Source: a virus | Taxonomy: Duplodnaviria > Caudoviricetes | Reading direction: 5' to 3' (one strand) | Length of the DNA stretch: 64,000 bases | Virus record (IMG/VR): IMGVR_UViG_3300021375_000006 | Part shown: in pieces, positions 9,671-13,049 of the stretch | Numbering within the stretch: the first letter of the stretch is position 1 | Layout: the number at the start of each line of letters is the position of its first letter | Notes under the pieces: generated by a model | What the model saw: only the letters and a program-made list of their open reading frames with translations | Database searches by the model: none | What the model was told of the DNA's origin: nothing | Program-made: the position numbers and the translations under genes

Positions 9671-10060
9671 TTAAGCATTTATCGTCCTCAAATGTTTATA
9701 CCATTTAATTAGATGTGAAGCTGTCTTATAGTTAGTGGCTAGTGGTATATTGTGAACATCACAAAGTCTCATCAACATAGAAATATCTACATCGTGGGCA
9801 TGTTTACCTAGTGGATCTCTCATAAAAATAACCAGATCGATTTCACCTCTGGTTACCATTGCTGCAATTTCTGCATCACCACCTAGTGGTCCACTCTGTA
9901 CTGGTTCTACTTTCTTAATACCAGCTCTTTTACAATGAGAGCCAGTTGTACCCGTGGCTACAATGTGAATATCTTCCTCATTAAAAAAGGTTAACCTCTT
10001 TGATACAAAAGCAACCATATCTGCTTTCTTGTTGTCATGTGCTATTAAAGCGATTTTCAT
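9671..10060 (-). CDS. mgsA: methylglyoxal synthase
   Basis: IALIAHDNKK, ATGTTG, SGPLGGD, DPLGKHAHDVD, IPLATN. Confidence 0.95.
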   Translation of the reverse strand: MKIALIAHDNKKADMVAFVSKRLTFFNEEDIHIVATGTTGSHCKRAGIKKVEPVQSGPLGGDAEIAAMVTRGEIDLVIFMRDPLGKHAHDVDISMLMRLCDVHNIPLATNYKTASHLIKWYKHLRTINA

Positions 10061-10611: not shown

Positions 10612-10690
10612 GGTAGTCAAGGAGAGACTTGAACTCTCATGTAACCAATTACTCTTTCAACAAGGTATAAGCTTGAGGAGATACTTGACT
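10612..10690 (-). ncRNA. non-canonical D-armless tRNA-like RNA with a TAT (Ile) anticodon loop
   Basis: 7-bp acceptor AGTCAAG/CTTGACT, T arm GAGAG-TTCAAGT-CTCTC, anticodon arm CAAG-CTTATAC-CTTG. No D arm, but an extra GTAA-TTGG-TTAC hairpin before the T arm. Confidence 0.7.
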
Positions 10691-10784: not shown

Positions 10785-10859
10785 CTCCACTTGGACTCTC
10801 CTTTCGGTTGTAGGCGTGAGATTTGACGCCTCGTTGTTCGGCTTTCGCCTATCCAAGAG
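10785..10859 (-). ncRNA. compact four-way-junction structured RNA candidate
   Basis: Closing stem CTTGGA/TCCAAG around hairpins GGC-GAAA-GCC, AGGCGT-N8-ACGCCT and CC-GAAA-GG. Confidence 0.55.
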
Positions 10860-10860
10860 C

Positions 10861-10976
10861 GGGGGAGTAGGGGATTCGAACCCCTACTTCTGCCTAACCA
10901 ACTTAATCACATCGCGTAACTAGTATGATGCTTTCAGTCTTAAGGTTGGAGCGTCGTACCGTTTGACTAACTCCCC
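10861..10976 (-). ncRNA. tRNA-like RNA (116 nt) with an enlarged anticodon domain / possible 35-nt intron
   Basis: Acceptor GGGGAGT/ACTCCCC, D arm GTC-AAACGGTAC-GAC, T arm AGGGG-TTCGAAT-CCCCT. Stem CCAAC/GTTGG encloses 42 nt instead of 7. Confidence 0.7.
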
Positions 10977-11058: not shown

Positions 11059-11063
11059 ATAAG

Positions 11064-11154
11064 AAAGAGAGGCTTCGGGTCTTTCGGGGTTACTACTATA
11101 TAGAAGCTAACCCTTGCTTTTATCCATATAAGTGTAGCTTCACTACCTCTCTTT
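11064..11154 (-). ncRNA. structured intergenic RNA candidate between tRNA-Leu and tRNA-Arg
   Basis: 9-bp closing stem AAAGAGAGG/CCTCTCTTT and a 7-bp inner stem GAAGCTA/TAGCTTC. Confidence 0.45.
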
Positions 11155-11157
11155 TAG

Positions 11158-11349: not shown

Positions 11350-12390
11350 TTATGAAATTAAGTGTGGTTTGGCTTCTGCTAGTCCTGCGTTTGTAACTAC
11401 ATTATATTCTGCTCGATTAAAATATTCAAGTAGATCATTAGCTCCAGCGTATGAGAATGCTGATTTGATTCCATCGGTTAGTCCATTGATAATAAACCTA
11501 GCGCCACCTTTAAATGGAATTGTAGTAGACTCGCCTTCAACATTACGTTGCTTTTGAGCGTGTGTAATTTTAGTCTCTAAAGATGCAGAACCACGATAAC
11601 GTTTGAAAAGACCTGCTGGAGTTTCAAGAATGGCTCCTGGCGACTCCTTTGTACCTGCTAATAGTGAACCAACCATTACACAATCGGCACCCACTGCGAG
11701 CGCTTTTGCAATGTCTCCGGATGATTTAATACCACCGTCTGCCATGATGGGAATTCCAGCAGAATCTGCAACTTTAAATACATCTTCAATTGAGGTTACA
11801 TTAGGTACACCGAAACCGGTCTTAATACGAGTGGTACAAAGAGAACCTCCCCCAATACCAACTCGTAGACCATCAGCTCCCCAAGCAATCAGATCTTCTG
11901 CTGCTTCTGCCGTTGCGATATTACCGGCAATAACATCTGTAAACTCTTCCAGATTTGCCTTCAATTCAGCTAGAGCGACTTCCATATTGCCATGGTGGCC
12001 ATGCGCAACATCAACGAGTATGATATTACAACCTGCTTCTTCAAGTGCGACAGCGCGGTCCAGGTAGTCTCCTACGACGCCCACTGCTGCCATGATAGGT
12101 AGATGTGAAAGTACAATATCACTGTCTCTAAAAGCTACTAGTTTTTTAACCTGTGCTACTTGCTCTTCGATAGACATAAACCTATGAATACAGCCAACTC
12201 CACCCATTTCCATCAGTGTTGCTGCCATTTCATACTCAGTTACTGTGTCCATACATGAACCTACAATTGGAATATCAATTGACCAGTTTCTACTAACATT
12301 AACTGCTAGTGAGATATTCTGGCGTGTTGGGATGTCAGAAAAGTTAGGGATGAGTTGAATATCATCGTACGTTAGTGCTTGCTTTCGCAT
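11350..12390 (-). CDS. IMP dehydrogenase / GMP reductase family (no CBS domains)
   Basis: MDTVTE, DVAHGH, VIAGNIAT, GIGGGSLCTTR, IMADGGIKSSGDIAKALAVGADCVMVGSLLAGTKESPG. Confidence 0.9.
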   Translation of the reverse strand: MRKQALTYDDIQLIPNFSDIPTRQNISLAVNVSRNWSIDIPIVGSCMDTVTEYEMAATLMEMGGVGCIHRFMSIEEQVAQVKKLVAFRDSDIVLSHLPIMAAVGVVGDYLDRAVALEEAGCNIILVDVAHGHHGNMEVALAELKANLEEFTDVIAGNIATAEAAEDLIAWGADGLRVGIGGGSLCTTRIKTGFGVPNVTSIEDVFKVADSAGIPIMADGGIKSSGDIAKALAVGADCVMVGSLLAGTKESPGAILETPAGLFKRYRGSASLETKITHAQKQRNVEGESTTIPFKGGARFIINGLTDGIKSAFSYAGANDLLEYFNRAEYNVVTNAGLAEAKPHLIS

Positions 12391-12452: not shown

Positions 12453-13049
12453 TTAAACTTTACCAGCAATTATAGCTTTTCCTCTACGAATTCTATTTTT
12501 GATAGTCTGAAGAGGTAAGTCATACTTTTTAGCAATGTCTTCATATTTCATATTGTTAAGTAGCCTATCTTCTAGAATACCTTTGTACATTGGCTTAAGA
12601 GTTTCAATACCTTTAAGAGCTTGTTCGTATCTATTCATTAGCTCGTCATCTTCATCAATCCAATCTTGCTCAGATTTATATTCCATTTCAACAAGTAGAT
12701 CCTTTGCAGAAGTTCTAGCATAATACCTAGATACTTCTATTCCACTATCTTGAAGTGCATCAATAGATCTTTTTTTGTTTCTTTGGCGAATCCAGCCTAG
12801 ACATTCATTGAATGCAATTCTGTAAAGCCATGTTGTGATTTGATATTGTGGATCGTATTGGTCTATTTTAGTCCACATTTTAGTAAGTGTATTTGTGACA
12901 ATGTCATCTTTAGCATCATTGTCTTTGACTACGTTAAAGACATAGTTCTCTAAGCCTGGTTTTATTTTATCATATAAGACTTTGTAGTCTTTTTCTGATC
13001 TGGATTTTGTAAAATTTTCTGCTAGTTCGCGATAGGATTTTTTAGACAT
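12453..13049 (-). CDS. ECF-type RNA polymerase sigma factor
   Basis: Region 2: KDDIVTNTLTKMW...YDPQYQITTWLYRIAFNECLGWIRQR. Region 4 HTH: MKYEDIAKKYDLPLQTIKNRIRRGK. Confidence 0.92.
   Translation of the reverse strand: MSKKSYRELAENFTKSRSEKDYKVLYDKIKPGLENYVFNVVKDNDAKDDIVTNTLTKMWTKIDQYDPQYQITTWLYRIAFNECLGWIRQRNKKRSIDALQDSGIEVSRYYARTSAKDLLVEMEYKSEQDWIDEDDELMNRYEQALKGIETLKPMYKGILEDRLLNNMKYEDIAKKYDLPLQTIKNRIRRGKAIIAGKV

Follow-up and report, generated by a model that had tools for sequence, protein, structure and literature searches.

In the permuted tRNA genes of Cyanidioschyzon merolae, the 3' half precedes the 5' half, and a circular intermediate restores the normal cloverleaf. The D-armless and armless tRNAs of mitochondria have lost the D stem together with the contacts between the D loop and the T loop, and depend on adapted partner proteins (PMC7609411). 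In bacterial translation the cloverleaf is regarded as universal; a paper published in 2024 states that it is adopted by all known bacterial tRNAs, and describes engineered non-canonical tRNAs in E. coli and laboratory evolution (PMC11551756). A canonical tRNA-Ile(UAU) occurs in Mycoplasma mobile (PMC3575796).

The gene described here, 77 nt in length, occupies positions 10614-10690 on the minus strand of a 64,000-nt stretch of viral DNA (IMG/VR record IMGVR_UViG_3300021375_000006; the window hereafter) and, to judge from its sequence and those of its relatives, probably encodes a functional elongator tRNA-Ile(UAU) with a rewired chain connectivity. Like the permuted genes of C. merolae, it has tRNA segments out of textbook order; unlike them, it has its two acceptor strands at the ends of the gene, and its RNA would stay rewired after maturation. 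As in the mitochondrial D-armless tRNAs, no D hairpin separates position 9 from the anticodon stem; unlike them, the RNA retains a D stem, the whole D loop and the elbow nucleotides, and must use ordinary bacterial machinery. The engineered E. coli tRNAs address the same question, namely whether a tRNA of non-cloverleaf shape can serve in bacterial translation; unlike those constructs, the rewired family would be a natural counter-example, carried by phages and mobile elements. The layout is undescribed in the full-text literature searched, including a review of non-canonical tRNAs, although most subscription journals lie outside that coverage and such an absence is not proof.

The genome behind the window is that of a myovirus-like phage with a G+C content of ~34% and genes for a tail sheath, a large terminase, a portal protein and a ribonucleotide reductase. 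The rewired gene belongs to a minus-strand tRNA cluster that comprises, in the order listed, tRNA-Leu(UAA), tRNA-Arg(UCU), an odd 116-nt tRNA-like RNA, tRNA-Asp(GUC), the rewired element, an ORF of 138 codons and tRNA-Pro(UGG), with tRNA-Asp ending 5 nt ahead of the rewired element. The letters given for positions 10612-10690 in the original prediction match the minus strand of the window exactly. The CCA end is partly encoded, in that the discriminator A is followed by an adjoining CC and then by G; the four canonical tRNAs of the cluster have C at position 74 and likewise lack a full CCA. ARAGORN never called the rewired element, whether run on the window or on the element in standard, mitochondrial and low-threshold modes. 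Searches with all 4227 Rfam models, at the gathering score and at E values up to 10, returned zero matches on 10612-10690; neither the tRNA model (RF00005) nor any family for the tmRNA tRNA-like domain, viral TLS, mascRNA or Y-RNA-like mimics matches the element at E up to 10. The element has a complete anticodon arm, which is usually missing from tRNA-like mimics. With the whole cluster as a Megablast query, GenBank phages gave matches to the neighbouring canonical tRNAs alone, and the closest virus record examined, a 33-kb fragment, is without a copy of the rewired gene. A scan of the cluster for sigma-70 promoters and terminators gave none exceeding the shuffled expectation.

The family to which this gene belongs comprises at least 240 IMG/VR loci. 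An exact 30-nt pattern is found in 14 IMG/VR contigs in which the element is near-identical and the flanks are wholly different, and two degenerate patterns have at least 120 IMG/VR matches each, with 74 and 104 distinct 77-nt sequences among the matches listed. Copies are also present in 77 cultured Streptomyces phages, including Jay2Jay, and among other GenBank phages in Kehishuvirus 'tikkala', the crAss-like phage cr130_1 and a 462-kb phage. Nearly all GenBank phages that carry a copy lack an annotation for the gene, one record giving it as tRNA-Leu; rewired genes in GenBank are either unannotated or labelled tRNA-Leu, tRNA-OTHER or tRNA-Undet. The base at position -1 is U in 87 of 128 family members.

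Covariation among homologues was analysed in two alignments, A1 with 78 sequences and A2 with 148 sequences, the latter selected so that the search pattern left the proposed D stem free. The original prediction proposed a canonical acceptor stem (7 bp), anticodon arm (loop C-U-UAU-A-C) and T arm (5 bp, loop UUCAAGU), and covariation supports all three, with abundant compensatory change in both A1 and A2. The D arm had been considered absent; in fact, a D stem forms between nt 11-13 and nt 37-39, enclosing the anticodon arm, with double changes at all three pairs, and it is paired in 100% of the A2 sequences. Pair 11:39 is CG in 115 sequences, AU in 24 and UA in 9; pair 12:38 is CG in 98, GC in 35, UA in 10, AU in 3 and UG in 2; and pair 13:37 is CG in 109, GC in 34, UA in 3 and AU in 2. 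RNAalifold, with no structure supplied, predicts the same D helix enclosing the anticodon stem and leaves nt 40-52 unpaired. Nucleotides 40-49 read U-A-R-Y-Y-G-G-U-N-R and can be aligned to standard positions 13, A14, R15, 16, 17, G18, G19, 20, 20a and 21. Nucleotides 41-49, drawn earlier as part of a hairpin, are a standard D loop, unpaired. R42 covaries with Y52, the pyrimidine directly 5' of the T stem (AU 99, GC 37, GU 3 and other 9 in A2), and this covariation is, as read from the alignment, the equivalent of the 15:48 Levitt pair of ordinary tRNAs. U8, A9 and the equivalents of A14, G18, G19 and the T-loop nucleotides U54, U55, C56 and A58 are invariant wherever they were unforced. The parts of the window copy are listed in Table 1, together with neighbouring elements. 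U40 stands opposite U10 as a conserved U.U at the 13:22 position. The GAAA of the linker was forced by the search patterns, yet it is also seen in three GenBank blastn matches; linkers other than GAAA occur in divergent family members.

Table 1. Parts of the rewired tRNA gene in the window, and neighbouring elements of its cluster
Feature	Position	Strand	Basis or remark
Acceptor stem, 5' strand (nt 1-7, AGUCAAG)	10684..10690	-	Pairs with 10615-10621; 7/7 pairs compensatory in A1 and A2
U8 A9	10682..10683	-	Invariant in 148 sequences at positions unforced by the search pattern
D-stem strand, canonical 22-25 (U10 C11 U12 C13)	10678..10681	-	11:39, 12:38 and 13:37 100% paired; RNAalifold helix
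C14, inferred to be position 26	10677..10677	-	Conservation >=90%
Anticodon arm	10660..10676	-	Conserved mismatch U15.U31; 4 covarying Watson-Crick pairs; loop CUUAUAC
Anticodon UAU	10667-10669	-	U33 and A37 both present
Linker: variable nt 32 (position 44 equivalent) and invariant GAAA	10655..10659	-	
D-stem strand, canonical 10-13 (G37 A38 G39 U40)	10651..10654	-	Partner of 10678-10680
D loop (A14 R15 Y16 Y17 G18 G19 U20 N R21 equivalents; AAUUGGUUA)	10642..10650	-	A41, G45, G46 and U47 invariant in A1, unforced
C50 A51 U52	10639..10641	-	C50 and A51 invariant in A1; U52 is position 48 and pairs with A42
T arm (GAGAG / UUCAAGU / CUCUC)	10622..10638	-	4/5 pairs covary; G53:C61 equivalent invariant
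Acceptor stem, 3' strand	10615..10621	-	As for the 5' strand
Discriminator A (10614) and CC	10612..10614	-	Next base G
MGS-like domain protein gene, flanking the cluster	9671-10060	-	Auxiliary gene
Compact RNA with two GAAA-capped hairpins	10785-10859	-	Immediately after the 116-nt tRNA-like gene
116-nt tRNA-like gene	10861-10976	-	Well-formed acceptor, D and T arms; 41.6 bits against RF00005; 58-nt insertion replaces the anticodon arm; no ARAGORN call
tRNA-Leu/tRNA-Arg spacer	11059-11156	-	Long closing helix (AAGAGAGG ... CCUCUCUU); may be a further small structured RNA
GMP reductase/IMPDH-family protein gene, flanking the cluster	11350-12390	-	Auxiliary gene
ECF-type sigma factor gene, flanking the cluster	12453-13049	-	Auxiliary gene

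The fold first proposed for this RNA, truly D-armless in the manner of animal mitochondrial tRNA-Ser and with a variable-arm hairpin GUAA-UUGG-UUAC that contains the GG, equals the minimum-free-energy fold of the single sequence, but that fold has a z-score of -0.87 and is no better than those of shuffled sequences. The hairpin (39-42/47-50, GUAA/UUAC) shows no compensatory change, its 41:48 pair is broken in 32 of 77 sequences, and it does not appear in the RNAalifold prediction. R42 covaries with Y52 and not with nt 47, and in LR756500 a G39-to-U change disrupts the hairpin while preserving the 11:39 pair. This fold is thus very improbable. Chance can be excluded because the element is conserved across hundreds of unrelated flanks, and not by its folding energy. 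It is barely credible that the element is what remains of a decaying tRNA, or chiefly a site acting at the DNA level (e.g., an integration target) whose RNA has no function. The T loops of two bacterial copies (L253 and L281) are interrupted by the same palindromic sequence and a partial canonical tRNA lies immediately upstream of the cr130_1 copy, as such a history might leave; against this, the anticodon loop is intact, copies with unrelated flanks number in the hundreds, and all four helices are kept by compensatory change, which indicates that selection acts on the RNA rather than on a DNA site.

Compared with a canonical elongator tRNA-Ile (RF00005), the RNA has the same 7-bp acceptor stem, 5-bp T arm with a UUCRANY loop, 7-nt anticodon loop, U33, NAU anticodon, A37 and A73, the same U8, A14, R15:Y48, G18, G19 and U20, and the same location in a tRNA cluster. 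It differs in the place of segment 10-21, which in a canonical tRNA lies between positions 9 and 22 and here lies between the equivalents of 44/45 and 46-48. Between A9 and the anticodon stem there are 5 nt only, and the D hairpin that would stand between positions 9 and 26 in a four-way junction is absent. On the evidence of the alignments, the 5' strand of the D stem and the D loop are relocated to the position of the variable loop. The whole can be accounted for, we infer, as the 74 nt of a class I tRNA plus 3 extra nucleotides, with segment 10-21 moved into the variable loop. As a result of this relocation the anticodon arm lies inside the D stem, and the junction is three-way where that of the cloverleaf is four-way.

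The chain would run from the acceptor 5' strand through U8-A9, strand 22-25, position 26 and the anticodon arm to a 5-nt linker (N-GAAA), and from there through 10-13, the D loop (14-21), 3 nt ending at the equivalent of 48, and the T arm to the acceptor 3' strand. In the L-shape of tRNA, the D stem stacks on the anticodon stem, with strand 10-13 following strand 39-44 across a nick, and positions 21 and 48, like positions 9 and 22, are neighbours. A linker from 44 to 10 should be sterically easy because 10-13 continues 39-44 across this nick, and since the short linker closes the nick while the chain is opened at 9/10 and 21/22, the three-dimensional fold should stay intact. All tertiary contacts could persist, because 44 and 10, 21 and 48, and 9 and 22 adjoin one another. 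The contacts retained would be U8-A14, R15-Y48, those of G18 and G19 with the T loop, and the stacking of the D stem on the anticodon stem; the invariant GAAA and CA may substitute for the groove-filling nucleotides 45-47.

The anticodon and the nucleotides that identify an isoleucine tRNA are strongly constrained. Variants of the core pattern in which position 35 was not A gave a single match, a chance one in coding-like DNA, and those in which position 36 was not U gave none; the control version recovers 243 of 247 family members. Anticodons of the Ile-type core are restricted to NAU, and among the matches listed the viral loci have UAU in 215 cases, GAU in 28 and CAU in 13. A structural scan of all retrieved loci with the anticodon left free found UAU 249, GAU 44 and CAU 22, plus Arg anticodons; it yielded the layout for Ile and Arg only, the remaining matches being misparsed ordinary tRNAs. 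The discriminator is A in all 293 UAU and GAU members and in all 22 CAU members, and nt 20 is U in 314 of 315 Ile-type members. A73 and U20 are determinants for bacterial IleRS, while A20 is the main determinant for bacterial ArgRS (Table 1 of PMC9976931). The core determinants listed there for E. coli IleRS are U20, U21, G16, U12:A23, C29:G41 and C4:G69; the window copy, with a UAU anticodon, A37 and A73, matches C4:G69 and does not match U12:A23 (here G:C), C29:G41 (here A:U) or G16 (here U). U12:A23 and C29:G41 are often present in GAU members. AUA makes up 18% of Ile codons in the window (12.4 per 1000 codons), and the canonical tRNAs of the cluster fit the favoured phage codons AGA, UUA and CCA. 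The RNA would be excised from the transcript of the tRNA cluster, receive its CCA and be charged by the host IleRS, with which the NAU anticodon, A37, A73 and U20 are consistent, and the charged RNA would read AUA alongside the phage tRNAs for AGA, UUA and CCA. With its UAU anticodon, the RNA may plausibly bypass TilS.

The idea that the rewired layout is exclusive to NAU anticodons had to be narrowed when a model built from Ile-type sequences only (R1) found weaker relatives of the same layout, scoring 57-63 bits, with Arg anticodons and other linker lengths. A scan for this Arg type gave at least 122 matches, with acceptor and T stems intact in all 122 listed; among the matches listed, the anticodon is UCU in 56, ACG in 51 and UCG in 15 (CCU was found too), nt 20 is A in 119 of 121, and CCA is encoded in 82 of 121. 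The two families share the succession of U8-A9, a short D strand, the anticodon arm, a linker, the other D strand, UAAYNGG and the T arm. They differ in that Arg-type members have G, U or A as discriminator, vary in the lengths of the linker and the D stem, and often encode CCA. Escherichia phage alia, whose host is E. coli K-12, has a rewired tRNA-Arg(UCU) with an encoded CCA (NC_052655, 140530-140603) in an unannotated gap of its tRNA array. The restriction to Ile and Arg might reflect a single origin with a switch from UAU to UCU, a possibility raised by the AGAAA linker and the CAU ahead of the T stem that some Arg-type members have in common with the Ile type; alternatively, it might be tied to the reading of the D loop by both of these class Ia synthetases.

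The companion genes of the viral loci are mainly tRNA-Arg(UCU), tRNA-Leu(UAA) and tRNA-Met(CAU). Coexistence was counted in 99 arrays, each with 8 or more canonical tRNAs. A rewired gene is accompanied by its canonical counterpart with the same anticodon in 7 of 110 cases; where the array lacks that rewired gene, the counterpart is present in 142 of 484, a baseline in which every array was itself retrieved because it holds some rewired gene (one-sided Fisher p = 3e-8). For UAU alone, coexistence is 1 of 28 against a baseline of 20 of 71. In large arrays, a rewired gene takes the place of its canonical counterpart. The usual combination is a rewired UAU gene with a canonical GAU gene, the converse is found in 'tikkala', and rewired GAU and UAU genes occur together in four phages. 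Jay2Jay is an exception: its rewired GAU gene is accompanied by canonical GAU and UAU genes and is hence redundant, in a phage with many duplicate tRNAs.

A functional elongator tRNA-Ile fits best with the restriction to Ile anticodons, the determinants outside the anticodon, the replacement of isoacceptors, the placement in a cluster and the U at position -1, all features read from sequence. Counted against it are the redundancy in Jay2Jay, two U.U pairs in the acceptor stem of the 'tikkala' copy, the unmatched minor determinants of the window copy, a mismatched 6:67 pair in 17-21 aligned sequences (A1/A2), and a D stem of just 3 Watson-Crick pairs. Of the original prediction of an arm-rearranged functional Ile tRNA, the function is thus the favoured reading, on the strength of the NAU anticodon, A73/U20 and isoacceptor replacement; the structure was misdrawn, as a D stem exists and the supposed hairpin is the D loop.

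A scan of species-representative bacterial genomes gave 56 matches. A Cytophagales group (Chryseolinea, Chryseosolibacter, Ohtaekwangia and related MAGs) has one common variant, and a single copy is present in each of the 5 genomes checked (three of Chryseolinea/Ohtaekwangia, a Pedobacter and one MAG). In three Chryseolinea and Ohtaekwangia chromosomes (L314, L315 and L316) the neighbouring genes encode a MobA/VirD2 relaxase, two RlaP RNA-repair proteins, an HD + P-loop kinase (AAA_33) protein and a WYL/WCX regulator, and the region may be a mobile island for tRNA supply and RNA repair. Because of these neighbours, the bacterial copies in the three contexts examined appear to ride on mobile tRNA arrays, outside the core translation set. 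A role as the core AUA decoder of Cytophagales, in replacement of the lysidine route, was considered and rejected, given the TilS encoded in 5 of 5 bacterial genomes carrying a copy, the single copy and the mobile-type neighbours.

The RNA-repair genes bear on a different explanation, in which the RNA is a mimic or decoy of tRNA-Ile that occupies an anticodon nuclease or other tRNA-targeting defence, a TilS-like modifier or a sensor of uncharged tRNA. Bacterial copies adjoin genes for RlaP and for the HD + P-loop kinase protein, the Jay2Jay copy is redundant with canonical Ile genes in a phage that encodes Ro, an RNA ligase, a polynucleotide kinase and a tmRNA, and the unusual core would be an odd choice were decoding all that mattered. 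A decoy would, however, have no need to avoid a canonical gene of the same anticodon, which these genes do, nor to retain isotype-specific synthetase determinants beyond the anticodon (A73/U20 in one family, A20 in the other); many Arg-type genes encode CCA, UAU and GAU versions occur together within single phages, and we know of no nuclease specific for tRNA-Ile. A decoy is therefore decidedly unlikely, and less likely than the functional Ile tRNA with rearranged segments. It is possible, though still unlikely, that a translating tRNA has had its core rewired as an adaptation, making it invisible or resistant to an enzyme that reads the ordinary geometry of the D arm and variable pocket; candidates for that enzyme are a host defence nuclease and an activity of the phage itself that depletes host tRNAs. 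Such an adaptation would explain why phages and mobile elements alone have the design and why it travels with RNA-repair genes, and why it is found for Ile and Arg only, the two isotypes for which the class Ia synthetase reads nucleotide 20 in the D loop.

If the rewired RNA is charged and decodes, it would represent a second natural tRNA topology acceptable to bacterial RNase P, the CCA-adding enzyme, IleRS and ArgRS, EF-Tu and ribosomes, and would separate the topological accidents of tRNA from its required features. It would also expose a blind spot of tRNA finders, with phage repertoires for AUA, AUY, AGA and CGN under-counted, and would offer new scaffolds for the design of orthogonal tRNAs. 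Tractable systems are at hand in Jay2Jay with S. lividans, 'tikkala' with Bacteroides cellulosilyticus and, for the Arg form, alia with E. coli K-12.

Several further features of these loci were observed. In Jay2Jay (L434/L435), the rewired gene has a gene for a small nucleotidyltransferase (gp110) on one side and an FtsK-like gene on the other, and the RNA ligase of this phage is T4-like. The compact RNA with two GAAA-capped hairpins recurs ~20 nt upstream of the rewired gene in six sister contigs (L003, L004, L005, L008, L009 and L014), in which tRNA-Asp is absent. The partial canonical tRNA of cr130_1 (L133:1436-1480; NC_055901) is a 5' half directly upstream of the rewired gene, comprising the acceptor strand, the D arm and the beginning of the anticodon stem. 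In two bacterial genomes (L253:5211-5287 and L281:3734-3810), the shared palindrome (CCGATAGCTATCGG) interrupts the T loop near its start, and it looks as if an element has inserted there, as happens in ordinary tRNA genes. A copy that is one base off the window copy (at nt 32) is found on a 29-kb contig of the MAG Flavobacteriaceae SAT1509 (L303:2803-2879), preceded by genes for tRNA-Leu(UAA), tRNA-Arg(UCU) and tRNA-Lys(UUU); this copy may point to a host among the Flavobacteriaceae, or a phage contig may have been mis-binned.
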